From NCBI GenBank assembly GCA_041660025.1, contig JBAZXD010000002.1:68635-132634 (forward strand): a DNA stretch of 64,000 nt, given 5' to 3'. Made by a program: the position numbers and the translations under genes. The notes under the pieces are model-generated. The model was not told where the DNA came from. It did no database searches and saw nothing but the letters and a program-made list of their open reading frames with translations. Positions 12,176-57,657 of the stretch are shown here, one piece after another (the stretch's first letter is position 1; each line of letters starts with the position of its first letter). This stretch comes from Minisyncoccota bacterium. Lineage in GTDB: Bacteria; Patescibacteriota; Minisyncoccia; Phycocordibacterales; Phycocordibacteraceae.

Positions 12176-12249
12176 GCCGCCTTAGCTCAGTTGGCTAGAG
12201 CGCCACTTTTGTAAAGTGGATGTCCTCGGTTCGAATCCGAGAGGCGGCT
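12176..12249 (+). tRNA. tRNA-Thr (anticodon UGU)
   Basis: Cloverleaf read by eye: acceptor GCCGCCT/AGGCGGC, D-arm GCTCAGTTGGCTAGAGC, anticodon stem CCACT/AGTGG with loop TTTGTAA (anticodon TGT), T-arm CTCGG-TTCGAAT-CCGAG, discriminator T. CCA is not encoded. Confidence 0.85.
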
Positions 12250-12926
12250 CAAAGGTTAGTAGTCGTTTGAGAGGTCGTTGAGACCAGCGCGCCCTTGGGG
12301 AACTGTTTCTCGAGGTCCTCGAGCGTGGTGAAGCCGTAATACTGCTTGCCGTTGATGACGAATGCGGGGAAAGTGCTCTTCACCTTCGTAACGGCGATGA
12401 ACGTTTTCAGGGCGCCGAGGTCGAGATTGTAGTCGAACGAATACACGCGCAAGGTCGGATACGTGTCGCGCAGGTAGGAGAGCGCGTAGCCTGCCTTGTC
12501 GCAGTCGGCGCAATCGCCGGCATTGCTATAGAAATAGAGAACCGTCACCGGCTTCGTACCGCAGGCCTCCGCGAGCTTCTTTGTGATGAGATAGTCGCGT
12601 ATCTCGAGCAGGGAGTATTGCTCCTTCAGCCGTATCACTTGCGCCGTGTCGCTCCCGAGCTGATTCTCGGCGTAGGCAAGGCGATTGCCCATATCTGCGA
12701 GTTCGCCGGTCAGCGCGATAGAAGAGGCGGCGCTGTCGCAGGGCGCCGCCTCGAGCAGGGAGAACTGTGTGTCGAGCGACAGGATGTCGATGGAGAGCTG
12801 GTCCTCGATGGTCGAGAGTTCGTTGATGCGTACGCGGTTCAGGTAGCTGATGGCGTACGCGACCGTGCCCGCAAGCAGGACGGTGATACCGAGAGCTATG
12901 AGCGCGTTCCGGGCAACGAGTGACAT
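12249..12926 (-). CDS. membrane-anchored thioredoxin-fold protein (CxxC 'CADC')
   Basis: N-terminal TM helix 'ALIALGITVLLAGTVAYAI', a coiled linker, and a C-terminal domain 'VTVLYFYSNAGDCADCDKAGYALSYL...FPAFVINGKQYYG' typical of thioredoxin/DsbA-like folds. Its 3' end abuts the tRNA 3' end. Confidence 0.6.
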   Translation of the reverse strand: MSLVARNALIALGITVLLAGTVAYAISYLNRVRINELSTIEDQLSIDILSLDTQFSLLEAAPCDSAASSIALTGELADMGNRLAYAENQLGSDTAQVIRLKEQYSLLEIRDYLITKKLAEACGTKPVTVLYFYSNAGDCADCDKAGYALSYLRDTYPTLRVYSFDYNLDLGALKTFIAVTKVKSTFPAFVINGKQYYGFTTLEDLEKQFPKGALVSTTSQTTTNL

Positions 12927-12929
12927 ATA

Positions 12930-14168
12930 TCAATTCCGCCAATCGCGGCGTTTGCCGGTGGTGACATCAGCCGTGGCACGCAGAAGCCACAGCGGCACGA
13001 CAAGCCCGTAGAGCAGGGTGTAGGAAACGAGTCCGAACGTAATATCTCCCGGCGTCTTCGAGATGCGTTTCCCGATGAGAATGAGGGAGAGCGAGGCGAG
13101 GAGCGTTACCGCACCAAGAACGAGGTAGAAGTTAGCGGAGAAGAACAGCCACTCGAATGAGCCGTGCGGTACGAGCGCATAAGAAAGCGGAACGCCGGCG
13201 CGGACTTCGAAGGCGGCAAAGGCGTTCCGCGCAATCTCAAAGAGCATAAAAAAGAACAGCACCATACCGCTCCCGATAGCGAGAAGCGCGCTTGGGAGCA
13301 TAAGCATACCGAGTGCGCCGTGGCGGCGGTTCGCGATGAGTCCGCGGTATTCGCCGAAGATGTTCCGCAGGAAGCCGGACGTCCAGCGCGTGCGCTGCTT
13401 CAAGAGCTTCATGATGGTACTCGGCGCTTTCGTATAGACGCGCGCGCGCGGTGCGTTCTCGATACCGTACCCCGCCTGTTGGATGCGGAGCGCCATTTCC
13501 ATATCCTCAGTCTGGTGTCCGTAACGGAATCCGCCGAGCTTCTCAATGATGGCGCGCCGGTAGAACGAGAAGGGTCCCGGTGTGACGTAGAGGCCGTTTA
13601 TCGAGGCGATGGCGTGTCGGAATGTGATGCCGAAGATATATTCGGCATTTTGCATATGCTGGAGGATGTTCCCCGGCTTGTGGATCGACATCGCACCGGT
13701 CGCGGCCGCGACGTTCGGGTCCTCAAAGCACGGGAGGATCTCGAGGAGCGCGTCCGGCTCGACGAACGAGTCTGCATCAAGACAGGCGACAAACTCGGCA
13801 TTTGTCGCGGCGACGCCAGCATTTAGCGCGGTGTGTTTGCCGCCGTTCTCTTTGCGGATGATGCGCACTTGCGCTTCGCTCGCGAAACGCGCCATAGCGG
13901 CGGGCGTTGCATCGGTCGAGCCGTCATCGACGAGGATGATCTCGAGTTTCTCCTTCGGATAATCGAGCGCGAGTAGTGATTCGCACGTCGCGGCGACGGT
14001 CGCCGCTTCATTCCAGCAGGGGACGATAATGGCGACGGAAGGCGTCGCGGTACCGGGGGTTCGCGCGCGCGCCGCGCGCGCGGGCTTCGAGAGAAGCGTC
14101 ACAAGGACGAAAGACTCGAAGAATATCGCGATGAAGAGGAACGGATAGGCAAGCGCCTCCAGACTCAT
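12930..14168 (-). CDS. family-2 glycosyltransferase, processive/membrane-integrated type
   Basis: 'VAIIVPCWNEAATVAATCESL...LEIILVDDGSTD...FVACLDADSFVEPDAL' carries the GT-A DxD and 'QxxRW' ('LKQRTRWTSG') motifs, with multiple C-terminal TM helices. Start set at internal Met 'MSLEALAYPFLF'; the ORF-track start at 14261 is likely an upstream read-in. Confidence 0.75.
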   Translation of the reverse strand: MSLEALAYPFLFIAIFFESFVLVTLLSKPARAARARTPGTATPSVAIIVPCWNEAATVAATCESLLALDYPKEKLEIILVDDGSTDATPAAMARFASEAQVRIIRKENGGKHTALNAGVAATNAEFVACLDADSFVEPDALLEILPCFEDPNVAAATGAMSIHKPGNILQHMQNAEYIFGITFRHAIASINGLYVTPGPFSFYRRAIIEKLGGFRYGHQTEDMEMALRIQQAGYGIENAPRARVYTKAPSTIMKLLKQRTRWTSGFLRNIFGEYRGLIANRRHGALGMLMLPSALLAIGSGMVLFFFMLFEIARNAFAAFEVRAGVPLSYALVPHGSFEWLFFSANFYLVLGAVTLLASLSLILIGKRISKTPGDITFGLVSYTLLYGLVVPLWLLRATADVTTGKRRDWRN

Positions 14169-14199
14169 ATATAGCGCCACTGTAGCACAAAATCTCCCG

Positions 14200-15351
14200 C
14201 TAACGAATCGTCGCGCCGAAGTTCTTAACGGTGGCGGCTTCGAGCTTGGAGTGGAGGGCATTCACCTCGTCATTCGTAAGTGTCTTGTCGATGCTTCGGT
14301 AGGTGATTCGGTACGCGTAGCTGACCCTGCCGGCACCCAATTTTTCCTCATTCTCATACGTATCCACGAGCGTCATCTGTTCGGCCATATCACCGACCAC
14401 ATCGCGTACGAGGTCGAAATAATTGTTCGGGACGAAATCCTTGCCGACGACAAAGGAGATATCGCGCACGACCGGCGGATATTTACTGACCTCGACGAAC
14501 GCGTGTCCCAATCGGAGTTGTTTCTTTACGCGTTCATCCTCGCTCCAGAAAAGGCGGATATCGGGAACCTCGGTGCCGATTATCGCGAGCCGTTCGAGCC
14601 CGAAGCCGAATGCCCAGCCGTGGTATCCGACAACGCCCATCTTTTTGAGTACGCTCGCCTTCGGCATACCTCCACCGAGTATTTCGATCCACTCGCTCCC
14701 CGCTGCTTGTGCCGCCGCGCCCGAGACCCCGACCTCCACCTCAAGCGATGGGTCGGTGTACGGGAAGGTGTCGGGATTGAAACGGAATTTCGTATCTTCG
14801 CCGAAGACGCTTTTCACCACCTGCGAGAGCGCGCTCTTAAGGTCCTCGATATCGAGCGGCTCTGACTCTGGAGTAAGGAACCAGCCGCCCATCTGATGGA
14901 AGATGTTCATATGGCGACGGTCGATCTCATCCTTACGATAGACCTTGCCGTAGCAGAGCGCGCCCATCGATTCTCCGCGCAGGATACGCTCCTTGATCTC
15001 GGGCTGGTTGAGGTAGTAGTACCAAAAGACAGTGTCGTGCGTGCGCAGGATATTCTCGGTATCCACGTAGTACGTGTCTGAAGAAGAGCGCGCGGGGTGG
15101 TCGGCAGGGAAGTCGAAGAGGTCGAAGCTGATGCTTGCGGGCACGATTTCCGGTATCTCGATATCATCGAAGTCTTTGAAGACAGGGAGCGCTTTCACGC
15201 GCTCAACAATCTCACGGAGCGGGCTTCCGGGCGTGCGGGAGAGGTCCGGCATCGCCAGATACCGCTTCATACGCTCCGCGTCCACGTCGGTCCGTTGCTC
15301 CAGTTCGGCTCGGAGCAGCTCCTCCTCGGCCCTCGATATTCTGATATCCAT
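14200..15351 (-). CDS. pheS: phenylalanine--tRNA ligase, single-chain mitochondrial-like form (PheS catalytic core fused to a C-terminal FDX-ACB anticodon-binding domain)
   Basis: Class II motifs 'FPYTDPSLEVEV' and 'GWAFGFGLERLAIIG' are PheS alpha-subunit hallmarks. The C-terminal ~90 aa 'RDISFVVGKDFVPNNYFDLVRDVVGDMAEQMTLVDTYENEEKLGAGRVSYAYRITYRSIDKTLTNDEVNALHSKLEAATVKNFGATIR' matches the FDX-ACB domain of PheT C-termini and mitochondrial FARS2. The typical bacterial PheS N-terminal coiled coil is absent. Confidence 0.85.
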   Translation of the reverse strand: MDIRISRAEEELLRAELEQRTDVDAERMKRYLAMPDLSRTPGSPLREIVERVKALPVFKDFDDIEIPEIVPASISFDLFDFPADHPARSSSDTYYVDTENILRTHDTVFWYYYLNQPEIKERILRGESMGALCYGKVYRKDEIDRRHMNIFHQMGGWFLTPESEPLDIEDLKSALSQVVKSVFGEDTKFRFNPDTFPYTDPSLEVEVGVSGAAAQAAGSEWIEILGGGMPKASVLKKMGVVGYHGWAFGFGLERLAIIGTEVPDIRLFWSEDERVKKQLRLGHAFVEVSKYPPVVRDISFVVGKDFVPNNYFDLVRDVVGDMAEQMTLVDTYENEEKLGAGRVSYAYRITYRSIDKTLTNDEVNALHSKLEAATVKNFGATIR

Positions 15352-15400
15352 AGATATTTTAGAATATCACATTTTGTGCTAGAATATAGGCAACAAACGT

Positions 15401-17485
15401 ATGGCTAAAACGACCGACACAGAGCCTAAAAAGAAGGCGTACGACGCCTCGTCTATTACCGTCCTTGAGGGGCTCGAGCCGGTGCGGAAGCGACCGGGTA
15501 TGTATATCGGGACGACCGGTCCCGAGGGACTCCACCATCTCATCTGGGAAATATTCGACAATGCGCGCGACGAGGCGATGGGCGGATATGCGAACGACAT
15601 AGAGGTCGCGCTTCTCCCCGACGGCTATGTGCGCGTGGCGGACAACGGTCGCGGCATTCCGGTCGGCATCCACCCGAAGACGAAAGTCTCCGCGCTCGAG
15701 ACCATTATGACCACGCTTCACGCCGGCGGTAAGTTCGGCGGAGAAGAGTCGGGCTACAAGGTCTCGGGCGGCCTTCACGGCGTCGGTGCGTCAGTGGTGA
15801 ACGCGCTTTCGGTGCACACCTCGGTCATCGTGCACAAGGAGGGCGGCATACACCTGCAGGAATATAAGATCGGGAAACCGCTCGCGAAGGTGAAGAAAGT
15901 CGGCACGACGAAGCTCGTCGGTACCATCGTGAAGTTCAAGCCGGATGCGGAGATATTCAAAGAGGGTGTCGAGTGGGATTGGGAAAAGATCGTCGCGCAC
16001 CTGCGCCAGCAAGCCTACTTGGTGAAAGGGGTTCGCATCAGTGTCATCGACGCGCGCGCTTGCGCGCGTGTCGCCGATGAAGACTGTTTCTATCTGCGCG
16101 AATTGAAGGGATTCGCAGCACCATCGCTCACCTTCTACTTCGAGGGTGGGCTGAAGTCGCTCGTCGCTTTCCATAACAAGCATCAGACGCCGGTGCACAA
16201 GAACATCTTTTATATCGACCGCGAACACGAGAATGTCGCGGTTGAAGTCGCGCTCCAGTATGTCGACGACCTCACGCCGCGGATCACCGCGTTCGCGAAC
16301 AACACCTACAACAGCGAGGGCGGCACGCACATTACCGGCTTCAAGACGGCGCTCACGCGCTCGCTCAACACGTATGGGCGGAACGCGAACATTCTCAAGG
16401 AGAAGGATGAAAACTTCACTGGCGACGATGTGCTCGAGGGTATCACGGCGGTGGTCTCAGTGAAGCTTCCCGAGATCCAGTTCGAGGGACAGACGAAGGC
16501 GAAGCTCGGCTCGGTCGAGGCGCAGGGCGCGGTCGCTACGGTCTTCGGCGAGGCGCTCGGCTCCTTCCTCGAAGAGAATCCGGATGACGCGCGCGCCATC
16601 ATCAACAAAGTCCTTCTCGCGCTCAAGGCGCGTAAGGCGGCGAAAGCGGCGAAGGACTCGGTCCTGCGCAAGGGCGCGCTCGAGGGTATGACGCTCCCGG
16701 GTAAGCTCGCGGACTGCCAGACCAAGAGTGCAGAAGAGGGCGAGCTGTTCATCGTCGAGGGGGATTCGGCCGGCGGCTCGAGCAAGCAGGGTAGGGACCG
16801 CCGCACGCAAGCCATCCTCCCTTTGCGCGGCAAGATCCTCAACGTTGAACGCGCGCGCATTGACCGTATGCTCGCGTCGGTTGAGATTCGCGCGCTCGTT
16901 ATCGCGATGGGCACCGCCATCGGGGACGTCTTTGATATATCGAAACTCCGTTATCATAAAATAATCATCGCGACCGATGCTGACGTCGACGGTGCGCACA
17001 TTCGCACACTTCTCCTCACGCTCCTCTATCGCCACTTCCGGCCGATTATTGAAGGCGGCTTCGTCTATATTGCCCAACCGCCGCTCTATAAAATCACGAA
17101 AGGGAAGTCAATCGCGTATGCGTATTCGGATAAAGAAAAAGAAGTCGTACTGAAAGAGTTCGGCGTTGCCCCTTCGGAGGTCTCTGAGAATCCTCTGGAA
17201 GGCGATGAGGAAACCGTCGGAGAAGAAGCGGAAGCGGAAGCGGAAATCGCGAGCGCGAAGAAGCCAGCGAAGGTGAATATCCAGCGCTACAAAGGTCTCG
17301 GAGAAATGAACCCGAGCGAGCTTTGGGAGACGACGATGGACCCCGCGCGGCGCGTGTTGAAGCGAGTGAACGTCGGGGATGCTGAAGCGGCTGATCGCAT
17401 CTTCGATATCCTTATGGGCACTGACGTCGCTTCGCGCAAGTCGTTCATCCAGTCGAACGCGAAACTCGCGAATCTGGACGTCTAA
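15401..17485 (+). CDS. gyrB: DNA gyrase subunit B
   Basis: GHKL ATPase 'HHLIWEIFDNARDEAMGG...DNGRGIPV...GLHGVGASVVNALS'. Toprim 'ELFIVEGDSAGGSSKQGRDRRTQAILPLRGKILN'. C-terminal 'KGLGEMNPSELWETTMDP'. Confidence 0.92.
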   Translation: MAKTTDTEPKKKAYDASSITVLEGLEPVRKRPGMYIGTTGPEGLHHLIWEIFDNARDEAMGGYANDIEVALLPDGYVRVADNGRGIPVGIHPKTKVSALETIMTTLHAGGKFGGEESGYKVSGGLHGVGASVVNALSVHTSVIVHKEGGIHLQEYKIGKPLAKVKKVGTTKLVGTIVKFKPDAEIFKEGVEWDWEKIVAHLRQQAYLVKGVRISVIDARACARVADEDCFYLRELKGFAAPSLTFYFEGGLKSLVAFHNKHQTPVHKNIFYIDREHENVAVEVALQYVDDLTPRITAFANNTYNSEGGTHITGFKTALTRSLNTYGRNANILKEKDENFTGDDVLEGITAVVSVKLPEIQFEGQTKAKLGSVEAQGAVATVFGEALGSFLEENPDDARAIINKVLLALKARKAAKAAKDSVLRKGALEGMTLPGKLADCQTKSAEEGELFIVEGDSAGGSSKQGRDRRTQAILPLRGKILNVERARIDRMLASVEIRALVIAMGTAIGDVFDISKLRYHKIIIATDADVDGAHIRTLLLTLLYRHFRPIIEGGFVYIAQPPLYKITKGKSIAYAYSDKEKEVVLKEFGVAPSEVSENPLEGDEETVGEEAEAEAEIASAKKPAKVNIQRYKGLGEMNPSELWETTMDPARRVLKRVNVGDAEAADRIFDILMGTDVASRKSFIQSNAKLANLDV

Positions 17486-18255
17486 GATCCGAGAACCGTT
17501 ACCTTCGCGGAAGCACTGTTGTTGTCCGTACTCGATTCTGCGACCGTGCGGTCGAAGTTCGCGGTAATCGAGATCATCTGATCGACCCCTTTGTTCGATT
17601 GGTCGAAGCCGAGCGTGTAGTCGATACTGTCGCCTGGGCCGAGCGTTTGCTGGGTCTGGGATTGGTAGAGATACGCGGTTTGCGTCGGGATGGATGCGCT
17701 CCAGCGCCACGGACCGCTTACGTTCGTACCGATATTTTTAATAGTGAATTTGACTGCGGGGCGGCTGTCGGCAGGGACCGTCGAAGTTGCGACAAATGAT
17801 TCTGCTGAATTCGAGGCGAGGTAGCCGACTGCATTGATGGTCACGACGAAGTCGGGAAGGCCTGAGAGCACACCGGTCGCAAGGGCGCCACCGATCTGAT
17901 ACGTGCCGCCCGTCTTTTTTCCCGCCGTAGGAGCGGTTTTCGTCTCGGCTGGAGCGGTCGGTGAGGTCGTACTTACCTCTGTCGAAGAACCCTCTTCGCC
18001 GAAGGGGATTGTCGTCGATGCGACGGGCGTCGGGACAACCGAGAGGGTAGGCTCGTCCGCCGGAGTGAAGACCGAGCCGAGGTAGACGGCGGCACTGCCG
18101 ATACGACCGGCGACGTCCGGGACATAGCGTGTCGAATAGACCGCGAGCCACATACTCGCGCCGATAAGCGCAACGAATCCAACCACGGCGAGCGTGTTTA
18201 TGAAGAGGTGGCGATTTGAGGCAAGAGACTGCGATTCGTTCATAGATAAATACAT
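17482..18255 (-). CDS. membrane-anchored surface protein with a Ser/Thr/Pro-rich linker and a CARDB-like beta-sandwich domain (hypothetical)
   Basis: N-terminal TM 'LAVVGFVALIGASMWLAVY', linker 'PTLSVVPTPVASTTIPFGEEGSSTEVSTTSPTAPAETKTAPTAG', and C-terminal 'VKFTIKNIGTNVSGPWRWSASIPTQ...ANFDRTVAESSTDNNSASAKVTVLG' resembling CARDB domains. Divergent from the sortase gene. Confidence 0.55.
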   Translation of the reverse strand: MYLSMNESQSLASNRHLFINTLAVVGFVALIGASMWLAVYSTRYVPDVAGRIGSAAVYLGSVFTPADEPTLSVVPTPVASTTIPFGEEGSSTEVSTTSPTAPAETKTAPTAGKKTGGTYQIGGALATGVLSGLPDFVVTINAVGYLASNSAESFVATSTVPADSRPAVKFTIKNIGTNVSGPWRWSASIPTQTAYLYQSQTQQTLGPGDSIDYTLGFDQSNKGVDQMISITANFDRTVAESSTDNNSASAKVTVLGS

Positions 18256-18345
18256 ACCATACTGTACTTTCTATGTCAAGTGTCTGGCGGCGACACCACG
18301 TCTTGACAAGGATGCTACAATGGCGTATTAATGGATTAAGACTAT

Positions 18346-19017
18346 ATGGGGAAAATCATCAACTTCATCGTCCGACTCATCCGGGTCGGCAAGCAGGCGT
18401 ATACGAGGAAGTGGAGCTTCTTCGGCATTTTCGTCATAGCATTCCTCGGCAGTGTGAATATGCTCGCCACACTCGATCTGTTGCCGCAGGTTCCGCTCAC
18501 CGCCGTACTGGCGGCGACGAATCCGACCGTTCCTCAACACGCGCGCGGACAGGAACCGGTCGCGATCGTCGAGCTACCGACGAGCATTGAGATCAAGACC
18601 ATCGATCTCCTCGCGACCATTGAGAATCCGACGGCGACCGATGCCGCACTACTCGACCAGGGGCTGTTGCGCGGTGCGGTGCGTTACCCGACGTCGGCCA
18701 AGCTTGGCGAGACGGGCAATGTCGTCCTTTTCGGCCACTCGAGCTATCTGCCGGTCGTGGGCAACCAAGCGTACAAGACATTCAACGGCATTCAGAAGCT
18801 CGCGGCAGGAGAAGTCATTACCGTATATTCCCTTGATACGGCATATACGTATCGGGTACGGACCGTCGCGAAAGAGAGCGCGGATAATAATACGGCGATC
18901 CCGCTCTCTGTTTCCGGGAAGGCGCTTACGCTCGTGACCTGCAATTCTTTCGCCACGAAGGCAGACCGTTTCGTCGTTACCGCGGACTTTGTTGAAAGTC
19001 GTTCGATTTCCGGCTAA
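18346..19017 (+). CDS. sortase-family transpeptidase
   Basis: N-terminal TM anchor, catalytic His in 'GNVVLFGHSSY', Cys in 'ALTLVTCNSF' (sortase TLxTC motif) and a downstream Arg 'ADRFVVTADF'. Confidence 0.78.
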   Translation: MGKIINFIVRLIRVGKQAYTRKWSFFGIFVIAFLGSVNMLATLDLLPQVPLTAVLAATNPTVPQHARGQEPVAIVELPTSIEIKTIDLLATIENPTATDAALLDQGLLRGAVRYPTSAKLGETGNVVLFGHSSYLPVVGNQAYKTFNGIQKLAAGEVITVYSLDTAYTYRVRTVAKESADNNTAIPLSVSGKALTLVTCNSFATKADRFVVTADFVESRSISG

Positions 19018-19035
19018 CGCCGGAAATCGAACGAC
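18998..19035 (+). terminator. perfect 17-bp hairpin that spans the sortase stop codon (terminator- or attenuator-like)
   Basis: GTCGTTCGATTTCCGGC-TAAC-GCCGGAAATCGAACGAC. The TAA stop of the sortase gene lies in the loop, and no clean U-tract follows. Confidence 0.45.
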
Positions 19036-19119
19036 TCTCCGCAAGGAGAGCAGGAACGTTGTTCTTTCTACTCAATCCGATTAACGCCGCAGTAGCGGCA
19101 CAGCAAAAAGGAGATATCG

Positions 19120-20169
19120 ATGAGTAAAATCATCGCAGTGCTGGCGCTCGCAATCGCGACGCTGGCTGTCCCAGTCGCATCTGTTGCGGCGACTTGGAAA
19201 CCGTTCTTCCGTGGGATTAACAACCCTGCGGAACTCGAGGGCAAGATAGAAGCCTCACTCGCGAAGAACCCGAAGGGTACCAGTATGCTCGACCCGGAGC
19301 GTTGTAAGCGCGACGGATCGTGTGCCACGCCTCTGAATTATTTAGAGGCGCTGAAGCAGGTGGATCCAGGCGCACACCTTACCAGTGTGGCGCAGGTTCC
19401 CGGCTTCCTCCGGACGCTTCAAGTGATTGACGCGCCCGTTGGCGAATACTGGATCTCGTGTTTGAAGCCTTCGGGCCGCGGCACCTATCGGGCAGTACTT
19501 CACTGTCTCTCTCGCTCATTCAAGAAAGGCGAGAAGGCGTGGGTTGATCCGAAGACGAATAAAATCGTGTTCGCCTCGGATTGCACGAATCCGGTGGAAA
19601 AGCCGGTGAAAGAGGAATGTGTGTACATTCCGTTCATCACGAAATCCGTCAACACAGTCGTGCGATTCGCAGCTGTCGGTCCCGCTGACATCCGGAAGGA
19701 CGATGATTGCCTCGCGGTGAAAGCGGCAGGCGATACGGAGTTCGAGAGGTGGTGGGCCGACAAATGTGCTTCGGTGTACTGCGATTTCTCTGCTCCCGCC
19801 GCAGTGGTCGGACAGAGAATCCTGGTCATCGGTAGTTATGAACCGAAACCAGGCGAGCACATCCTGCGTCTTCCGAAGTACTTTGCAGAAAAAGGGTCGC
19901 TGTTCGTGACTCTTCTCTGCATCGAAAATACGAAGATGACGTGGCCGGAGCTTCCGAACCAGTCGGCTTCTCGGGAACAAATCGCTGAATGGATTGCCGG
20001 ACACTCCGACACCATAGGTGTCCGGTGGCATGACTATCGGGTAACGCAATCCGGGAGAAGGGAAGCAAGGGTGTTTTACACCAAGGCCGATGTTCCACCG
20101 GGTCTGTCCGTGTCTCAGTCCGAGCTGTATTGGCATTGGGGCGAATGGGCCCGGATGCAAGCGCGTTAG
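19120..20169 (+). CDS. secreted cysteine-rich protein (hypothetical)
   Basis: Signal peptide 'MSKIIAVLALAIATLAVPVASVAA' followed by about 12 Cys in motifs 'ERCKRDGSCATP', 'DCTNPVEKPVKEECVY', 'DKCASVYCDF'. No sortase C-terminal signal. GC is visibly lower than in neighbouring genes. Confidence 0.6.
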   Translation: MSKIIAVLALAIATLAVPVASVAATWKPFFRGINNPAELEGKIEASLAKNPKGTSMLDPERCKRDGSCATPLNYLEALKQVDPGAHLTSVAQVPGFLRTLQVIDAPVGEYWISCLKPSGRGTYRAVLHCLSRSFKKGEKAWVDPKTNKIVFASDCTNPVEKPVKEECVYIPFITKSVNTVVRFAAVGPADIRKDDDCLAVKAAGDTEFERWWADKCASVYCDFSAPAAVVGQRILVIGSYEPKPGEHILRLPKYFAEKGSLFVTLLCIENTKMTWPELPNQSASREQIAEWIAGHSDTIGVRWHDYRVTQSGRREARVFYTKADVPPGLSVSQSELYWHWGEWARMQAR

Positions 20170-20271
20170 CTTGTCGGACGACAGGGAGAATGCGGGGGCG
20201 TTGAATAAACGCTCTCGCATCCACTCCCTTTTTATACGCCGCGCAAGCGGCAGAGGAGTATTTCACAAATC

Positions 20272-21720
20272 GTGATAAAAACAAAAACAGCACTTACGTA
20301 TTATGGTCGACCGATTCTTATCGGTCTCTTTACCGTGCTATTTACGGTCGCTATCGGCATGTCAATCGCGTTTGCAACAGGCTTCACTACGCCGGCAAAA
20401 GTCTTGGCTCAGGTACTGCCGCCTTGTTGCGTCATACCTCCGCCCCCTCCGCCTGCCCCAGTACTTCCTCCGTGTTGTGTCATTCCGCCACCTCCTCCGC
20501 CACCCCTGCCGCCACCTCCGCCGCCACCCCTGCCTCCTCCTCCGCTTCTCGCACCGACTCCCATAACGCCGGCTCCGACGCCGACGCCTGCTCCCACGCT
20601 CGTTCCGGAACCAACTCCCACACCGACCCCTGAACTCCCTCCCGCGCCTACTCCAACTCCCACACCAACGCCAACGCCAACGCCAACCCCCGAACCCCCG
20701 TCTCCGCCGCCTCCAACTCCCGAACCTCCTCTACCTCCTCCTCCCGAACCCCCACTCCCACCTCCTTCTGGCGGTGGTGGTAGTAGCGGTGGCGGCGGAG
20801 GGGGTGGCGGCGGCGGAGGCTCGCCCTCGCCGACCATCACGCTCGCAGTGCTCCCGCACGTGCTTTCTCAGCCGCTCGCGTATCTCTATCTCTCACAGAT
20901 CCCGTATACCGGCCTCGACCTCGGACCGATCGGCACCGTGCTCTATTGGCTTGCGCTTATCGGTTGGTCGCTTGCGCTCGCCTACCTCATCCTCTTCGGC
21001 GCCGCGCCGCTGGCGAACCGCCGCGTGCGCGACTTCGCATCTCGCATCAAGACCGCGCTCAACGCGCGTGAACTCCTGCCCGAGGAGAGGCAGGCGGTTC
21101 CTGCTGTCGCGCACACGGATGAGAAACCGCGTACGGAGCATACATTCCCCGAACCGTCGCGCGGGCACTCTTCGTATGAAGGATTCAAGTCGTATGCACA
21201 CGGCGGCGCTCTCTCGATCGAGGATATCGTGAAGGCTCTTTCGCGGGAGCGCCACGAAACGGCCACCGAATACGGCTCGCAATCGCGTCCGGCAGTCGAG
21301 CCGGTGTATGAAAATGTCGAGCCGATCTACGAACACACTGAGCCGGTGTATGAAAATGTCGAGCCAATCGCCGCTGCCGAGGTAAGAGTAGTGCCGCCGC
21401 ACATCCGCGGCTTCATCAGCGCGCTTGTTGAGGGCGACCGCACGGCGGTCTTTGCCGGATTGCGCCAGCACGTGCGCGGTGCCGGTGCGCCGGAACAACT
21501 CATCTCGTCCGCGATTTGTCTCCTCGATGATGCCTACCGTGCGCGTGTTGACGGAACCCTCTGCGACGAAAATATCGCGCGGCTGACCGCGCGCCTCAAC
21601 ACGCCGACTCTGGAGAAGCTTATCGCTTCGCTCGCCACAGCGGTCGATTCAAGCTATTCAGAAGGAGTCATCGGCGCGAAACTCGCGCTTACCCGCGCTC
21701 TCGCCGTCATCGGCGCTTAG
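20272..21720 (+). CDS. proline-rich low-complexity membrane protein with an internal sortase-like sorting signal and a cytoplasmic tandem-repeat tail (hypothetical)
   Basis: GTG start, N-terminal TM helix, duplicated 'VLPPCCVIPPPPPP', (PT)n and poly-Gly tracts. Then 'IPYTG' + hydrophobic helix 'LDLGPIGTVLYWLALIGWSLALAYLILFG' + 'NRRVRDFASR'. Then about 230 aa with tandem 'EPVYENVEPIYEHTEPVYENVEPI'. Confidence 0.6.
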   Translation: MIKTKTALTYYGRPILIGLFTVLFTVAIGMSIAFATGFTTPAKVLAQVLPPCCVIPPPPPPAPVLPPCCVIPPPPPPPLPPPPPPPLPPPPLLAPTPITPAPTPTPAPTLVPEPTPTPTPELPPAPTPTPTPTPTPTPTPEPPSPPPPTPEPPLPPPPEPPLPPPSGGGGSSGGGGGGGGGGGSPSPTITLAVLPHVLSQPLAYLYLSQIPYTGLDLGPIGTVLYWLALIGWSLALAYLILFGAAPLANRRVRDFASRIKTALNARELLPEERQAVPAVAHTDEKPRTEHTFPEPSRGHSSYEGFKSYAHGGALSIEDIVKALSRERHETATEYGSQSRPAVEPVYENVEPIYEHTEPVYENVEPIAAAEVRVVPPHIRGFISALVEGDRTAVFAGLRQHVRGAGAPEQLISSAICLLDDAYRARVDGTLCDENIARLTARLNTPTLEKLIASLATAVDSSYSEGVIGAKLALTRALAVIGA

Positions 21721-22950
21721 TTACTTCCGCGAGCGGATCTCTTCGCTCGCTTTCGGTATGAAATCCGAGAGGGAAGCTATATCCAGTTTCCCCTGGTCGC
21801 GACTGTCGACTGAAATGGTTTTCGCCTCTACTTCCTTATCGCCGACGATGAGCAGATAGGGGATTTTTTCCGTCTTTGCATTTCGTATTTTCTTACCGAG
21901 CGATTCGTTCGCCTCATCCGCATCTGCGCGGATATTTGTCGCTTTCAATGCATTCAAAACTTCTTTTGCGTACGCAGTGTGCTTCTCAGAGACCGGGAGC
22001 ACGCGCGCCTGCACCGGACTAAGCCAGAGCGGAAGTATGCCAGCCGTGTGCTCAAGCAGAACAGCCGTGAAGCGCTCAATGGAGCCCATAATGGCGGAGT
22101 GGATCATCACAATGCGCTCGTGCTCGCCTTTCTCATTGACGCAGGAGAGGTCAAAGCGCTCGGGGAGGTTCATGTCGAGCTGAATAGTCGCTACCTGATG
22201 CTGACGGCCAAGAGAATCGCTTGCGATGAAGTCGAGTTTGGGTCCGTAGAGCGCGGCCTCGCCCGGTGCTTCAAAAGAATCGGCACCGCGCTCGCGCGCT
22301 ATCTCTCGCAAAGAATCTTCCGCGCTTTTCCAGATCTCCGGCGTGCCGAGATATTTCTCAGGCGCTTTCGGGTCGTGGAACGAGAGCCGCACTTTGAGGT
22401 CGGTGAATCCGAATTGTGTATAAAAGGTATCGATGATATCCCAAATCTTAAGGAATTCTTCTTTGATTTGCGTTGTGCGGCAAAAAACGTGGCTGTCGTC
22501 CTGCGTGATAGAGAGTACACGCGTGAGTCCGTTCAGTTCTCCCGATTGTTCGTCGCGATACACCATCGTCGTCTCGGCATACCGTTGAGGCATCTCGCGA
22601 TAAGAGTGCGGCCGGCGGGCGAAGATTTGCGTGTGATGCGGACAATTCATCGGTTTGATAGCGTACTCGCGCTCGTCGCGCGAGGTCATTTTGAAGAGGT
22701 CTTCGGCAAATTTTTCCCAATGGCCGGAAGTCTCGTACAGACTGCGCTTCGTGATGTGCGGGATGGTGACTCGCTGATAGTCGTATTTCGAGCGGAGCTC
22801 CCAGACGAACTGGTCCAACTCCTGGCGAACAACTGTGCCCTTTGGCGTCCAGAGCGGGAGGCCGGAGCCTACGAGCTCAGAGAAGGTAAACAAATCGAGC
22901 TCTTTGCCGAGCTTCTTGTGGTCGCGCTCTTTACCAGCTTCTGTATCCAT
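21721..22950 (-). CDS. thrS: threonine--tRNA ligase, catalytic + anticodon-binding domains only (no N-terminal TGS/editing domains)
   Basis: Class II core 'YAIKPMNCPHHTQIF...RVLSITQDDSHVFC' with the Zn ligands and a C-terminal anticodon domain. Start set at internal Met 'MDTEAGKERDHKKLGKELDLF'; the upstream 35 codons in the ORF track look like read-in. Confidence 0.85.
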   Translation of the reverse strand: MDTEAGKERDHKKLGKELDLFTFSELVGSGLPLWTPKGTVVRQELDQFVWELRSKYDYQRVTIPHITKRSLYETSGHWEKFAEDLFKMTSRDEREYAIKPMNCPHHTQIFARRPHSYREMPQRYAETTMVYRDEQSGELNGLTRVLSITQDDSHVFCRTTQIKEEFLKIWDIIDTFYTQFGFTDLKVRLSFHDPKAPEKYLGTPEIWKSAEDSLREIARERGADSFEAPGEAALYGPKLDFIASDSLGRQHQVATIQLDMNLPERFDLSCVNEKGEHERIVMIHSAIMGSIERFTAVLLEHTAGILPLWLSPVQARVLPVSEKHTAYAKEVLNALKATNIRADADEANESLGKKIRNAKTEKIPYLLIVGDKEVEAKTISVDSRDQGKLDIASLSDFIPKASEEIRSRK

Positions 22951-22976: not shown

Positions 22977-25900
22977 TCAGAGCGGCTTCAGCTCCTCGAT
23001 AGCGAGCGAAGGCTCGCCGTTCCTGACCGAGACCTTGCCCTTCACCAGGAGGCACGTACCGGGTGCGATAAGAGTCGCGTGTTCCTTTAAGAGCTTCGGG
23101 AAGATAACCGCCTCTATCGAGTCGGTCGTGTCCTCAACGGTGATGAACGCCATCTTCTCTCCGCTCTTGGTAAGGATGTTACGCACGATGGTAACGAGGA
23201 CCGGCAGGATGAGCAGCATTCCCGGTTGCGGCTCCTCCTTCACTTTCTTGATGGAGAGGTGAGCTTTCTTGGTGATAGCCTCGTGCGCGTCGAGCGGATG
23301 ACCGCTCACATAGATACCGAGCAGTTCTTTTTCCCACGCAAGCTTGTCGAGGAGAGACGTCGCTTTTCCTTCGGGAAGGATAAGGGAAGGAGCGGCGAAC
23401 GCGCCGAAGAGGGAATCTTGCGGTGCCGCCGCCGTCGCTTCACGGTGGAATGCAAGCATGGTTTCAATATTTTCGAGCATCGAGCCGCGCTTGTGCTCCG
23501 ACGTGTTGAGAGAATCTAGCGCGCCGCACTTAATCAATGATTCCAGTGATTTTCGGTTCAGATTCTTCGAACCGACGCGCGAGAGGAAGTCGGATAGCGT
23601 CTTGAAGGGACCGTGCGTTTTTCGTTCGGCGATGATGGCTTCCGAAATTCCGTCGCCGAAATTTTTTATTGAAGAAAGTCCAAATCGAATTGCTTCGCCG
23701 TTTGAAACTACCGTAAATACCGTTCCGCTCTCGTTCACATCTGGCGGGAGCACGGGGATTCCCATGCGCTTCGCCTCGGCGACGAAGATGGAGATCTGCT
23801 CAGTGTCGCCCGAGTCGGCGGTGAGGACTGCCGCGAGATATTCCACCGGATAATTCGCTTTCATATAGGCGGTCTGATAGGCGACCTTTCCGTAAGATGC
23901 GGCGTGCGCCTTATTGAAGCCGTAGGCGGCGAACGGCTCTATCAGCTCCCACAGTTTTTCGGAGAGCTGTTTGGAGAGTTTGCCGTATTCCATAAAACCT
24001 TTCATCAATTTCTGCTTCTCCGCCTGCATGACCTTCGGGATTTTCTTGCCCATCGCTTTGCGGAGCGCGTCCGCTTCGAGCCACGAATAACCGCCGAGCT
24101 TGATGGCGGTGAGAAGCACATCGTCCTGATAGACGAGAATGCCGTAGGAGAAATCAAGATACTCTTTCATCCGCGGGTCGAGATAATGGATGAGCTTCGG
24201 GTTATGTTTGCGTTCAATGTAGCTGGGAATCGTTTCCATCGGCCCCGGGCGGTACAGGGCGACCATTGCGTTGATGTCGTGGATGGTGGACGGCTTCAGC
24301 TCTTTGAGCCAGCGAGTCATGCCGGAGCCATTCAGCTGAAACGTTCCTTCGGTTTCGCCGCGCGCGAGCATCTGATAGGTCTTTGCGTCGTCGATCGGTA
24401 CGTTCTCGATATCGACCGCAATTGAGCGCGATTCCTTCACTCGCGCGACCGCATCAGCGAGAATGGCGAGGTTCTTGATACCGAGAAAATCGAATTTCAG
24501 GAGCCCGACGCCGCCGTACTCGTCGGTGATGGAATACATATCGTACTGCGTGATGATCTTTCCGGTGCCTTTCGGGTCGGGCTGAATAGGAGTCCATTCA
24601 ATGAGCGGGGTCGGTGCGACCACGACGCCCGCTGCGTGGACGCCGACGTGTCGCACACATCCCTCGATGCGTTTCGCGAGGTCGAGGATTTCCCGGGACT
24701 CATCGTCCTCATCGTAGAGCGCTTTCAGGTCCGGTTCCAGCTCGAGCGCATGGTCAATGGTCATCGGGAATCCCTGGGAGCCCATCGGGATAAGTTTCGC
24801 GATTCGGTCTCCGGTGGTGTAGGAGTGTCCGAGCGCTCGCGCGACGTCGCGCACCGCCGCGCGCGCCATCATCGTGCCGAAGGTGCCGATCTGTGCCACG
24901 TGGTCCTCCCCATATTTTTTCTTCGTATACGCGATCATCTCGTCGCGTCGATTATCGGCGATGTCCATATCAATATCCGGCGCTTTCGGGCGCTCCGGGT
25001 TAAGGAACCGTTCGAACGGCAGTTTATAGAAAAGCGGGTTCACGTTCGTGATGCCGATGAGATATGCGACGAGACTTCCGGCTGCGCTTCCGCGCGTGGT
25101 GGTGAGGATGCCAGCTCCTCGTGCGAAGGCGAGCAGGTCGGCGACGATGAGGTAGTACACGGCGAAGCCTTTGCCGATGATGATGTTCAATTCGTATTCG
25201 ATGCGGTCGGTGACCTCTTTCGTTTCTTCGAGCTTTCGCGTGGCAATACCGGCATAGGCCTTTGCACGCAGTTCTTCATCGTGATTTTTGAAGCCGGGTG
25301 AGACGGGAACTGCGGGGAAGGTCCATTTCCCGAGGTCGAAGGAGAGGGAACAGCGGTCGGCGATCTTCCGTGAGTTGTCTACCGCCTCGGGGATATCGTT
25401 GAAGAACGAGAGTGCGCGCTTCTCGCCGATGAACGAGAAATCCTCGTCCTCGTTCTTTCCGTGCGCGCCGTGCTGGATGCGGCGCATGATCTCGGTCGCC
25501 TCGCGGTCGTCGGGCGCGAGGTAATAGACGTCGTTCTGGGCGACAAGCGGCGTTGCGCTCGCGCGAGCGAGTGCGACGATTTTTTTCATCAATGCTTCGT
25601 GCCCCTCGACTTTCGGATGGTGCGTAATCTCGAGGAATACATTTTCAGTACCAAAGATGCCCTTGAATTCCGAAAGCGCGGCCGCCGCGCCGTTCTCGTC
25701 GCCCGCGCGCAGGAGCTGGGCGACGTCGCCGGCAAAAGAGGGAATGAGCGCGATGAGACCGCGAGCATGTTCGCGTAGCAACTCTTTATCCATACGCGGC
25801 CGCTCATAGAACCCTTCCGTCCACGACTTCGTCACAAGCGCGAGAAGATTGGTGTAGCCCTCATTATTTTCCGCTAAGAGGACGATGCGCGAGCGCTTCG

Positions 25901-26153
25901 CGTCGATGTTCTGGTCTCGGTCGTGGCGCGAGCGCGGGGCGAGATAGGCGTCGACGCCGAGAATCGGCTTGATGCCCGCACTGGTCGCCGCCTTATAGAA
26001 CTCGATTGCGCCGTGCATATTGCCGGCGTCAGTGAGTGCGAGCGCATCCATCCCCTCCTTTTTCGCTTTCTCCACAAGCTCGTCCACCTTCGGGAGCGCC
26101 TGGAGAAACGAATAGTGGCTGTGCGTATGCAGGTGGATGAAGCGACTTACCAT
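22977..26153 (-). CDS. dnaE: DNA polymerase III alpha subunit (DnaE), compact form of about 1059 aa
   Basis: PHP N-terminus 'MVSRFIHLHTHSHYSFLQALPKVDELVEKAKKEGMDALALTDAGNMHGAIEFYKA' and the Pol III alpha core follow. The ORF track extends to 26864 only because the antisense of rnhB carries no stops; start set at ATG 26153. Confidence 0.9.
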   Translation of the reverse strand: MVSRFIHLHTHSHYSFLQALPKVDELVEKAKKEGMDALALTDAGNMHGAIEFYKAATSAGIKPILGVDAYLAPRSRHDRDQNIDAKRSRIVLLAENNEGYTNLLALVTKSWTEGFYERPRMDKELLREHARGLIALIPSFAGDVAQLLRAGDENGAAAALSEFKGIFGTENVFLEITHHPKVEGHEALMKKIVALARASATPLVAQNDVYYLAPDDREATEIMRRIQHGAHGKNEDEDFSFIGEKRALSFFNDIPEAVDNSRKIADRCSLSFDLGKWTFPAVPVSPGFKNHDEELRAKAYAGIATRKLEETKEVTDRIEYELNIIIGKGFAVYYLIVADLLAFARGAGILTTTRGSAAGSLVAYLIGITNVNPLFYKLPFERFLNPERPKAPDIDMDIADNRRDEMIAYTKKKYGEDHVAQIGTFGTMMARAAVRDVARALGHSYTTGDRIAKLIPMGSQGFPMTIDHALELEPDLKALYDEDDESREILDLAKRIEGCVRHVGVHAAGVVVAPTPLIEWTPIQPDPKGTGKIITQYDMYSITDEYGGVGLLKFDFLGIKNLAILADAVARVKESRSIAVDIENVPIDDAKTYQMLARGETEGTFQLNGSGMTRWLKELKPSTIHDINAMVALYRPGPMETIPSYIERKHNPKLIHYLDPRMKEYLDFSYGILVYQDDVLLTAIKLGGYSWLEADALRKAMGKKIPKVMQAEKQKLMKGFMEYGKLSKQLSEKLWELIEPFAAYGFNKAHAASYGKVAYQTAYMKANYPVEYLAAVLTADSGDTEQISIFVAEAKRMGIPVLPPDVNESGTVFTVVSNGEAIRFGLSSIKNFGDGISEAIIAERKTHGPFKTLSDFLSRVGSKNLNRKSLESLIKCGALDSLNTSEHKRGSMLENIETMLAFHREATAAAPQDSLFGAFAAPSLILPEGKATSLLDKLAWEKELLGIYVSGHPLDAHEAITKKAHLSIKKVKEEPQPGMLLILPVLVTIVRNILTKSGEKMAFITVEDTTDSIEAVIFPKLLKEHATLIAPGTCLLVKGKVSVRNGEPSLAIEELKPL

Positions 26154-26174
26154 GCGCTCCAGTATACTTTCTGT

Positions 26175-26768: not shown

Positions 26769-26789
26769 GACTATATTGTCCGCTTGTGT

Positions 26790-27215
26790 CCAGCTATGGT
26801 AATCACCATGGGGGATGGGCACATAGAACAAGAACCTTTGATTTCGGAGAAGAGAAAGTGGCAAAAGAAAAAGGGAAGCATTGGTTAGAAGTAGACAGTC
26901 ATAAAAAAAGGCTTAAGGGAACCGGATTTGTAAAATGTATCCAGTGTCCCGGAGCCACAGGAAGAATCGCATCGGGAATCGTGGGAGAAGAGAGGGGCAA
27001 GAAGCTTATGGATTGCTCAAGGGTCTACGGGAAGGTTAAGTTGATAACCGAGGATCAAGCCAAGAGATGTGATGGCAAAAATCCTCTGTCGTCCAGCAAG
27101 GACGAAATACTCCAAGCGCACCATAAGCCAAGTCCTATATTTCCACGTCACAGACATCATCAACTGTGACATCTCGGCTTCGGCCATAACCAGCGCGTCT
27201 CCCTCGGGAGCGCGC
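26790..27215 (+). ncRNA. candidate structured RNA gene in an AT-rich island ending at an intrinsic terminator; identity unresolved (RNase P RNA is one possibility)
   Basis: About 425 bp visibly AT-richer than the flanking CDS. The only ORF here (26786..27169) has non-protein-like composition with no hydrophobic core. It ends at the 27193..27227 terminator. Short matches to bacterial RNase P RNA: 'GUCCCGGAGCCACAGG' (cf. P4 'GUCCGGGCUCCAUAGG'), 'AAGCGCACC' (cf. 'GAGCGCACC'), 'ACAGA...CGGCUU' near the 3' end. Confidence 0.3.
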
Positions 27216-57632: not shown

Positions 57633-57657
57633 GTATTTGTTGTATCGTTATCGGCAC

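Follow-up and report, generated by a model that had tools for sequence, protein, structure and literature searches.

The window, the whole 64-kb stretch of DNA that was analysed, holds a cassette of four genes in the order CARDB-like protein (minus strand), sortase, P3 and P4 (all plus strand). P3 is a Cys-rich secreted protein and P4 a precursor with an internal sorting signal. The four-gene cassette is conserved across Paceibacteria (ultra-small bacteria, Paceibacteria/"Kaiserbacteria"). Its features are the following.

17482..18255, minus strand: CARDB-like protein, N-terminally membrane-anchored, 257 aa
18139-18195, minus strand: TM segment of the CARDB-like protein, residues 21-39
17509-17790, minus strand: C-terminal CARDB-like region, residues 156-249 (PF07705, sub-threshold)
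18346..19017, plus strand: membrane-anchored sortase, 223 aa, TM segment at residues 25-43
18736-18738, plus strand: catalytic His of the sortase, H131 (aligned to PDB sortases)
18940-18942, plus strand: catalytic Cys of the sortase, C199 in LTLVTC (aligned to PDB sortases)
18967-18969, plus strand: catalytic Arg of the sortase, R208 (aligned to PDB sortases)
19120..20169, plus strand: P3, secreted, 349 aa, 10 Cys, signal peptide at residues 1-24 of 349
20272..21720, plus strand: P4 precursor (signal peptide, stalk, internal sorting signal and cytoplasmic module), 482 aa, GTG start
20272..20409, plus strand: P4 signal peptide or anchor, residues 1-46, h-region at residues 15-33 (hydropathy, K/R counts)
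20410..20868, plus strand: P4 ectodomain, residues 47-199, with two PPCC motifs, Pro-rich and PT repeats and a Gly run (DNA tandem repeats)
20869..20937, plus strand: juxtamembrane block QPLAYLYLSQ-IPYTG-LDLGPIGT, residues 200-222 (invariant columns)
20899-20913, plus strand: sortase-type pentapeptide IPYTG, residues 210-214
20938..21051, plus strand: TM helix (residues 223-246) and basic cluster (residues 249-260), NRRVRDFASRIK, parts two and three of the tripartite signal
21052..21393, plus strand: disordered cytoplasmic linker of P4, low pLDDT save one short helix (AF2)
21169-21240, plus strand: YSSY(D/E)GFKS(F/Y)A..GALSIEDIVK box in the linker (near-invariant residues)
21295-21369, plus strand: EPxYExV repeats in the linker, here EPVYENV (DNA tandem repeat, period 21, 3.4 copies)
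21394..21717, plus strand: C-terminal helical-bundle domain of P4, about 105 aa, residues ~375-482, pLDDT >95 (AF2)

All four ORFs were present at the coordinates given by an earlier sequence-only reading of the locus. That reading had also placed an N-anchored CARDB-like protein on the opposite strand; the orientation and the anchor held, and the CARDB assignment is weak. PF07705 covered profile positions 11-100 of 101 with E 3.4e-4 and remained below threshold (21.2 bits vs the 22.7 cut-off), and the orthologues were likewise scored 'CARDB (weak)'. Homologues of this protein adjoin the sortase in 45 loci, with the TM and juxtamembrane part conserved. The promoter scan of 17300-21900 detected no sigma-70-like sites, and terminator-like sites in the same interval were no commoner than in shuffled sequence; the scan was uninformative on operon structure.

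The sortase domain (PF04203) showed a score of 65.1 bits vs a cut-off of 26.6 (E 6.4e-18, Pfam HMM). H131, C199 and R208 align with the triads of the PDB sortases 4d70 and 2kw8, and this His/Cys/Arg set is invariant among 22-48 orthologues. The enzyme fell below every NCBIfam class cut-off (A-F, GN), the top model being class E (46 bits vs 160), and the class C model gave 30.5 bits vs 160. As no NCBIfam class cut-off was reached, the sortase belongs to no recognisable housekeeping class.

P3 is secreted without an anchor of its own. The sequence-only reading had assigned it about 12 Cys and a lower GC content; the number was wrong (10 Cys), and its GC is not meaningfully lower (0.563 vs 0.579 for the window). 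The further claim that no characterised family is involved held for P3 and P4: P3 gave no Pfam, NCBIfam or PDB match, and neither Pfam nor NCBIfam holds a model for the P4 family. The AF2 model of P3 (pLDDT 88.6) showed a helical N-domain and beta-sandwiches, for which no fold match was found in the PDB. With an iterated HMM, the P3 family was located between sortase and P4 in 40/46 loci, and it was absent or replaced in the distant cassettes L081 and L082. We regard P3 as an accessory member of the cassette.

The N-terminal region of P4 has a conserved AxA site (KVLA|QV), and its 'TPxQVxAQ' and 'PPCC' pattern is kept in relatives; cleavage by signal peptidase is inferred. The ectodomain that follows is hypervariable across the family. 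In this window it is merely a Pro/Thr/Gly stalk (Pro accounts for 73/160 of residues 47-206), and in relatives it spans 13-1109 residues and contains Ig-like repeats, CARDB (8e-19) and SpaA-type domains (3.6e-10). CARDB and SpaA-type domains are typical of wall-anchored proteins. Close homologues of P4 number more than 225, and the family as a whole forms 1038 representative clusters. Short homologues of 260-300 aa also occur, and the JGI gene call for this P4 is 286 aa. A non-coding N-terminal half was considered and rejected: stop-to-stop frames run upstream in all complete loci, and the N-terminus of P4, with its signal peptide, is homologous to that of full-length relatives. The short entries are truncations at contig ends or by gene callers.

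The sequence-only reading had proposed a tripartite sorting signal in the middle of P4. This held, with motif, TM helix and basic cluster all present; cleavage at the signal is inferred. The juxtamembrane block is near-invariant in the family consensus, QPLAYLYLSQ-[IV]PYTG-LDLGPxGT, and distant relatives retain it as LSQ[IV]PYTG[FY][DE]xGP. Among 189 homologues the pentapeptide was IPYTG in 151, VPYTG in 12, IPQTG in 7 and LPYTG in 7, giving conservation of 100% for P, 98% for T and 97% for G. IPYTG is the sole xPxTG with a downstream hydrophobic stretch in the whole window, and because the motif is conserved, it is no chance match. Strong conservation also extends over the 10 residues ahead of the pentapeptide. 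Such upstream conservation is unusual in LPXTG signals, and it could possibly mean a structural rather than a recognition role.

The TM helix has a hydropathy of 2.09, and AF2 built the region as one long confident helix. P4 has 3 K/R ahead of TM1, none in the 15 residues that precede TM2 and 5 in the 16 that follow it, and this distribution places IPYTG outside the cell. The charge and hydropathy rules thus predict an extracytoplasmic pentapeptide and a cytoplasmic basic cluster. The signal is not at the C-terminal end: 236 residues follow the TM, and the median distance from motif to protein end in the family is 273 residues. P4 showed no match to the anchor models PF00746 (Gram_pos_anchor) and TIGR01167 at E <= 1 in Pfam or NCBIfam. 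Canonical C-terminal sorting signals were looked for as well, and none occurred in the window or the 1.14 Mb of related loci searched; whole genomes were not covered. Other sorting-signal candidates were likewise not seen in the window or ~1.1 Mb of related loci, and further sortases or substrates elsewhere in the genomes are not excluded.

The cytoplasmic module, ~235-236 residues, is the most conserved part of P4. About 230 cytoplasmic residues with tandem EPVYENVEPI repeats had been described before as a tail; the repeats and the length held, and the view of a tail is corrected, since this part is the most conserved one and persists in lineages without a sortase. In the Foldseek comparison of the C-terminal domain with the PDB, 8vat_B ranked first, at E 3.4e-4 and with an rmsd of 2-3 A across ~112 columns; clamp-loader subunits made up all of the top ~40 matches. 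The resemblance to the clamp-loader collar (DnaX domain III) is one of fold only. Clamp-loader homology was rejected for lack of sequence-level support: the domain profile found nothing in the PDB, and the family-wide Pfam scan gave nothing relevant and no PF12169 match. Hhalign against E. coli DnaX 219-367 aligned the expected helices, yet with P 0.0095 and a probability of 4%. The DnaX reference sequence was verified; the related loci gave no dnaX gene for a better profile. P4 has no P-loop or AAA+ module, and upstream of the C-terminal domain lie the TM and the disordered linker.

The sortase adjoins a motif-bearing P4 in 49/49 informative loci found from P4. In the other direction, the P4 module and motif were present in 21/21 metagenome loci found from the sortase with enough downstream DNA. 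Synteny of the gene set extends from close relatives to distant Paceibacteria, and it also holds at loci where the gyrB/thrS flanks are different. One rival explanation is that this adjacency is the inherited gene order of a small clade, that IPYTG is incidental and that sortase and P4 are unrelated in function. In its favour, most loci share a gyrB ... thrS ... dnaE backbone, and a single clade, in which gene order is conserved in general, accounts for much of the adjacency. Against it, the cassette is intact despite changed flanks (L012, L023, L065, L082, L108, L156) and is kept in distant relatives with ~29% module identity; the PYTG motif is near-invariant over >1000 representative clusters; and the co-loss described below removes exactly the extracellular parts. 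This explanation is already largely refuted, and we consider it very improbable.

Sortase and motif were present together or lost together in every informative locus. In at least three lineages, P0064 (L085-87), P0225 (L088-89) and P0229 (L093-94), the P4 ectodomain and its PYTG motif are missing together with the sortase, P3 and the CARDB domain; each was seen on 4-5 contigs and in several samples. In these variants the N-terminal TM region of the CARDB protein is fused to the TM and cytoplasmic module of P4.

A second rival explanation, which remains possible, takes P4 for a bitopic adhesin or receptor that is not cleaved. Its ectodomain would then remain physically linked to the cytoplasmic module for outside-in or inside-out coupling, with the QPLAYLYLSQIPYTGLDLGP block as a structural juxtamembrane element, and the sortase would serve other substrates or have a non-catalytic role. 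This is supported by the long, folded cytoplasmic module, which exceeds the ectodomain in conservation and has no precedent as the tail of a sorting signal, by the conservation reaching 10 residues upstream of the pentapeptide and by the missing LPXTG-anchor HMM match. Against it, the pentapeptide conserves precisely the P, T and G that sortases need, and an intact sortase is strictly adjacent in both directions. The motif of an uncleaved protein should persist with the TM, yet it is lost with the sortase in three lineages, and no other candidate substrate is seen in the cassette or its neighbourhood.

On balance we lean towards cleavage: a dedicated sortase would cut P4 at T213|G214, the ectodomain would be exported to the wall or a different acceptor, leaving a functional stub in the membrane. 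Cleavage is inferred here, without biochemical evidence. The sequence-only reading had suggested such a cleavable tether, with the stalk moved to the wall or to another protein, and this is supported, as regards cleavage by co-occurrence and co-loss only. It had also named results that would refute it, namely IPYTG on the cytoplasmic side, or a trio never syntenic in relatives together with a sortase of a housekeeping class with known unrelated substrates. None of them was obtained: the charge and hydropathy rules place IPYTG outside, the set is syntenic in close and distant relatives, and no class cut-off was met.

In the cleavage model, P4 would be exported by Sec via its N-terminal signal peptide, and the TM helix after IPYTG would hold it in the membrane with the variable ectodomain out and the conserved module in the cytoplasm. 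The neighbouring sortase (H131/C199/R208) would recognise LSQ-[IV]PYTG-L(D/E)LGP, cut between T213 and G214 and pass the ectodomain to an amine acceptor. The acceptor is undetermined and would most likely be a peptidoglycan precursor. A cell wall is likely present, because the window encodes a protein with a PG-binding domain and a related locus encodes a D-Ala-D-Ala ligase. The stub G214-A482 would remain as a bitopic membrane protein, and its module (EPxYExV motifs and a collar-like bundle, perhaps oligomerising) is inferred to have its own function, probably in cooperation with the TM segment of the CARDB-like protein. The same apparatus would include P3 and the CARDB ectodomain as extracellular accessories.

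A third rival explanation concerns the acceptor. The sortase may join the P4 ectodomain to a protein and not to the wall, as a polymer or a hetero-complex with P3 or the CARDB-like protein, i.e. a pilus-like or covalent surface assembly. P3 and the CARDB-like protein are inherited and lost along with the sortase, P3 is secreted without an anchor, and SpaA-type pilin-like domains occur in the ectodomains of relatives. Against this, a sorting signal is present in just one cassette gene, the sortase has no class C score, no invariant Lys was seen in the CARDB-like protein, P3 is missing or replaced in the two distant cassettes, and the ectodomain here is only a stalk. We therefore consider protein ligation unlikely. 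A pilus as the main model was rejected on the same three points of a single signal-bearing gene, class C score and Lys; with one motif gene, the cassette does not meet the criterion for a sortase-assembled pilus (class C sortase and >=2 signal-bearing pilin genes).

A bolder form of the cleavage model is that P4 is a two-in-one precursor. Its cleavage by the sortase would yield a fast-evolving surface protein linked to the wall and a cytoplasmic device anchored in the membrane. The device would be the indispensable half; it would consist of a collar-like oligomerising bundle and EPxYExV docking motifs, and its partner would be the TM of the CARDB-like protein. We offer this reading tentatively, as less likely than not. 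If true, one cytoplasmic unit would be made per displayed surface molecule, and display at the envelope could in this way be coupled to a process inside the cell.

The surface and host-attachment biology of Patescibacteria is largely unknown. Our literature search on sortases in Parcubacteria/Patescibacteria/CPR/Kaiserbacteria or on internal signals returned generic mentions only and nothing on the P4 family. The cassette would offer an experimentally tractable handle on the variable CPR cell surface, with a single enzyme, a single peptide motif and variants that naturally lack the sortase. As the P4 family (>1000 clusters, no model) is often mis-called as a truncated gene, describing it would improve the annotation of many MAGs.

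Dedicated sortase-substrate pairs are known from Gram-positive bacteria, such as S. aureus SrtB-IsdC, B. subtilis YhcS-YhcR and the class D/E/F sortases. As in these pairs, a membrane-anchored His-Cys-Arg sortase is encoded beside a single presumed substrate, and P4 has the signal peptide, surface-type ectodomain, xPxTG, TM and basic residues of such substrates. Unlike them, P4 has an internal signal with 236 conserved residues, including a folded domain, after the TM, and its [IV]PYTG motif has extended conserved flanks. The cassette sortase also differs in scoring below the class A-F/GN cut-offs, and the host is a Patescibacterium.

The C-terminal domain of P4 superposes on the collar (domain III) of the clamp-loader gamma/tau, delta and delta' subunits and on the MgsA/RarA C-terminal domain. 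The clamp-loader collar domain mediates oligomerisation. Unlike the collar, the P4 domain is membrane-tethered, without an AAA+ module and without a sequence-level relation.

In Streptococcus gordonii, a C-peptide of ~30 residues is retained in the membrane after sortase A processing, and a separate histidine kinase senses it (PMC11326707, citing its ref. 61). Similarly, the P4 remnant after cleavage is inferred to be no waste product and to have its own role. Unlike the C-peptide, it would carry its own conserved 235-residue module, which also occurs as a stand-alone two-TM protein in the sortase-less lineages.

Sorting signals are generally treated as small, disposable C-terminal tags. Small C-terminal sorting domains are described for LPXTG/sortase, PEP-CTERM/exosortase, PGF-CTERM/archaeosortase, GlyGly-CTERM/rhombosortase and MYXO-CTERM/myxosortase (10.1101/2023.06.07.544157; PMC3237569). 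The P4 signal resembles them in its signature motif, hydrophobic helix, basic cluster and partnered processing enzyme; whereas all of these domains end the protein, that of P4 lies in the middle. To our knowledge, a long folded domain downstream of the signal occurs in no characterised sortase substrate, and an internal sorting signal ahead of a conserved cytoplasmic module has not been described for any known one. If the cleavage model is true, one gene could give two products, one on either side of the membrane, and a class-wide family with an internal signal and a folded cytoplasmic module would widen the definition of a sortase substrate.

The window derives from a metagenome-assembled genome of the Paceibacteria ("Kaiserbacteria"-like, Patescibacteria), and databases list proteins identical to those it encodes under Candidatus Paceibacterota, annotated as hypothetical. 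The four open reading frames that the sequence-only reading had assigned to a sortase-linked surface locus were all present as described. They form the following cassette:

17482-18255, minus strand: CARDB-like protein, 257 aa, with a single N-terminal TM helix
18346-19017, plus strand: sortase, 223 aa, PF04203 at 65.1 bits, with a TM anchor at the N-terminus
19120-20169, plus strand: P3, secreted protein, 349 aa, with 10 Cys
20272-21720, plus strand: P4, protein with the putative internal sorting signal, 482 aa, GTG start

The C-terminal region of the CARDB-like protein matched Pfam CARDB with an E-value of 3.4e-4 and 21.2 bits, slightly under the 22.7 threshold. The sortase triad (H131/C199/R208) aligned with the solved sortases 4d70 and 2kw8 and was invariant among orthologues. 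None of the NCBIfam sortase classes reached its cut-off, the top class being E (46 bits vs 160). No relatives of P3 were found in Pfam, NCBIfam, or PDB; its structure model was confident (pLDDT 88.6), with a helical N-domain and beta-sandwiches, and showed no match to PDB folds. Two earlier statements about P3 failed: it was said to have about 12 Cys, and the count is 10, and it was said to have a lower GC content, but its 0.563 is not meaningfully below the 0.579 of the window.

P4 begins with a signal peptide that carries an AxA site, followed by a stretch rich in Pro/Thr/Gly (73 Pro in the 160 residues from 47 to 206). IPYTG (residues 210-214) precedes a TM helix (residues 223-246) and a basic cluster, NRRVRDFASRIK, after which 222 more residues follow, EPVYENV repeats among them (DNA period 21, 3.4 copies). 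Charge counts placed IPYTG outside and the tail inside, a predicted topology that favours the earlier reading of the motif as extracellular. Within the 64-kb window, no xPxTG motif other than IPYTG of P4 had a hydrophobic stretch after it. LYLSQIPYTGLDLGP is put forward only as an inferred candidate peptide substrate for the window sortase, without cleavage data.

After the predicted signal-peptidase site, P4 carries 'PPCC' twice (window 20419-20430 and 20467-20478), and relatives keep AQVxxPPCC. The same window encodes a membrane-anchored DsbA-like thioredoxin (47759-48472, minus strand). Together, these features are compatible with extracytoplasmic disulfide chemistry for P4 and the 10-Cys P3.

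More than 225 close homologues of the C-terminal 299 residues of P4 were found, in Patescibacteria only. A profile search of a 50%-identity-clustered library gave 1038 representatives at E <= 1e-3, of which 143 reached E <= 1e-30. In a set of 150 of these, with lengths up to 1378 aa, the match almost always ended at or close to the C-terminus; three (P0307, P0312, and P0314) had ~55-65 residues beyond it. Alignments showed a fixed C-terminal module of ~270 residues, for which Pfam and NCBIfam hold no model. Its first block, QPLAYLYLSQ-[IV]PYTG-L(D/E)LGPxGT, is followed in turn by the TM helix, an R/K cluster, the box YSSYDGFKSFAxxGALSI(E/D)DIVKGL, 1-3 EPxYExV repeats, and a terminal domain of ~105 residues with the end sequence TGAKLALTRALAxLGA. 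The sequence N-terminal to the module was hypervariable in the family proteins examined (13-1109 residues), and ectodomains included Ig-like repeats, 'CMDSTATNYN' repeats, CARDB (8e-19), and SpaA-type prealbumin domains (3.6e-10), preceded by either of two signal peptide types. In the 189 homologues with sufficient N-terminal sequence, the pentapeptide was IPYTG (151), VPYTG (12), IPQTG (7), LPYTG (7), or MPYTG (3) in the commonest forms, with P, T, and G conserved in 100%, 98%, and 97%, respectively. LSQ[IV]PYTG[FY][DE]xGP was retained even in distant members with ~29% module identity.

Database entries of 260-300 aa are frequent in the family; the JGI call for the window P4 (cf. P0001) has 286 aa, begins VLSQPLAY, and is without the signal peptide and stalk. 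These short entries are truncations: the open frame in complete loci reaches a homologous signal peptide upstream. Tandem paralogues were observed in one related locus (L095, 1-1643), where the upstream copy had Ig-like repeats, LPYTG, a TM helix, and a shortened C-domain; directly after it, the His/Gly-rich downstream copy (P0316) had the module without the motif. The tandem EPxYExV heptads (VEPVYENVEPIYEHTEPVYENVEPI; window 21295-21369, P4 residues 342-366) were near-invariant family-wide and are predicted to be disordered and cytoplasmic. They look like EPIYA or pY-x-N-type short linear motifs, and by this analogy a docking or phosphorylation site is conceivable.

The linkage of sortase and P4 was analyzed in 80 GTDB species loci located through P4 (L001-L080), ~30 of which start within P4. 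The sortase lay 1.4-4.4 kb upstream of the module in every P4-anchored locus with enough upstream DNA. The commonest order was gyrB(+), CARDB-like(-), sortase(+), P3(+), P4(+), thrS(-). In L012, L023, and L065, the CARDB-like gene was downstream of P4 and gyrB and thrS were missing, with the cassette intact; in L082, the CARDB-like, sortase, and P4 genes directly abutted in a different genomic context. The sortase was also retained in L081 and L084, the loci of distant P4 members. Iterated HMM searches detected P3 in 40 of 46 loci, and it was missing or replaced in L081 and L082. Among informative loci, motif and sortase occurred together in 49, motif alone in 0, sortase alone in 0, and neither in 4. 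The reverse test, anchored on the sortase subfamily in 80 metagenome loci (L097-L176), showed the P4 module with its motif in 21/21 loci with sufficient downstream DNA. The proposed synteny of the gene set thus held, including loci with altered flanks. The other 59 contigs stop <5 kb past the sortase, so that the P4 ectodomain is apparently an assembly break point, possibly through low complexity and/or strain-level hypervariability.

Three variants (P0064, P0225, and P0229), each on 4-5 contigs from several samples, had a collapsed architecture in which a CARDB-like N-terminal tail, TM, and juxtamembrane segment were fused to the TM and cytoplasmic module of P4. The CARDB-derived part was 40-60% identical to residues 3-81 of the window CARDB-like protein, and the fusion junctions were not the same among the three. 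The collapsed gene alone occupied the entire gyrB-thrS interval in L085-L089 and lay in a moved context, between tgt and an FKBP gene, in L093-L094; sortase, P3, CARDB domain, P4 ectodomain, and PYTG motif were all absent from these loci. As gyrB of L085-L089 was 85-87% identical to that of the window, these lineages nest among cassette-bearing relatives. Another short variant, P0246 (L092), lay directly after gyrB with a degenerate FPYSG. The joint absence indicates that the extracellular parts and the sortase are one functional unit, kept or lost together. The module persists without the sortase, which indicates a cytoplasmic function independent of it, and the fusion (Rosetta-stone) suggests that the CARDB-like TM cooperates with the P4 TM/stub within the membrane. 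The cytoplasmic part is more than the tail of the sequence-only reading, being a conserved and separately functional module. That sortase and P4 are adjacent merely by inherited synteny is all but excluded, as it is contradicted by the L082 context, the distant members, the 49 paired against 0 unpaired loci, the reverse test, and the collapsed variants.

With moderate confidence, we favour a mechanism in which a dedicated sortase cuts P4, the ectodomain is transferred, and the stub stays. Sec would export P4, and the TM helix after IPYTG would hold it in the membrane. The neighbouring sortase would cut between T213 and G214 and hand the ectodomain to an amine acceptor, for which a peptidoglycan precursor is the likeliest candidate; the stub G214-A482 would remain as a membrane-anchored cytoplasmic module. 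A wall is plausible because the window encodes a PG_binding_1 protein and a related locus encodes a D-Ala-D-Ala ligase. Comparative genomics supports the earlier interpretation of a sortase with an internal signal; cleavage was not shown, and cleavage, acceptor, and module role are all inferred.

In the main rival reading, P4 stays uncleaved and acts as a bitopic adhesin or receptor whose juxtamembrane motif is structural. In its favour, no sortase substrate with a tail as long as that of P4 is known to us, and conservation reaches upstream of the pentapeptide. We consider it unlikely. It leaves unexplained why the motif vanishes whenever the sortase does, although the TM persists. Ligation of P4 to another protein, or a pilus-like assembly, is less likely still, though not excluded; it lacks a second signal-bearing subunit, a class C score, and an invariant Lys.

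The structure of the module was predicted by AlphaFold2 from an alignment of 56 sequences. A single long confident helix spanned the TM, the linker was disordered with a short helix at ALSIEDIVKAL, the EPxYExV repeats were disordered, and the C-terminus formed a six-helix bundle (pLDDT above 95). In Foldseek against the PDB, the top ~40 matches of the bundle were all clamp-loader subunits (E. coli gamma/tau domain III, delta, delta'), with MgsA/RarA C-terminal domains ranking below; the best match, 8vat_B, had E 3.4e-4, rmsd 2-3 A over ~112 columns, and 15-19% identity. Clamp-loader family membership was not supported: the module profile found nothing among PDB sequences, an hhalign comparison with E. 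coli DnaX 219-367 (sequence verified) matched up the equivalent helices but at a probability of 4%, and a Pfam scan of 56 family members gave no match in any. Without sequence-level support for homology, we take the bundle only to resemble an oligomerisation domain in fold and do not assign it to that family.

Elsewhere in the window, a 1109-aa secreted protein (54251-57580, plus strand) with a C-terminal PG_binding_1 domain (1.2e-13) adjoins a CAP/SCP-domain protein (57637-58599, plus strand); this second surface-related pair lacks any sortase-type signal. Upstream of pheS lie genes for a GT2 (chitin/cellulose-synthase-like) glycosyltransferase and for a small membrane protein (12249-14261, minus strand), which many loci conserve along with the cassette backbone. 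The distant relative L084 carries dnaE with an intein (15052-19482; Intein_splicing and LAGLIDADG matches); no such match is on record for the window dnaE region (22977-26864).

In full-text literature searches, neither the P4 family nor any sortase substrate from Paceibacteria was found described, and P4 matched no anchor HMM. The cassette behaves like a dedicated sortase-substrate pair. A defining feature of LPXTG-type sorting signals is that they form the protein C-terminus, and the internal P4 signal lacks it. Published surveys portray sorting signals as small C-terminal domains (10.1101/2023.06.07.544157; PMC3237569). The closest conceptual precedent for a useful remnant after cleavage is C-peptide sensing in S. 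gordonii (summarised in PMC11326707). In that case a separate kinase senses a short peptide, whereas the proposed P4 stub would carry its own cytoplasmic module.
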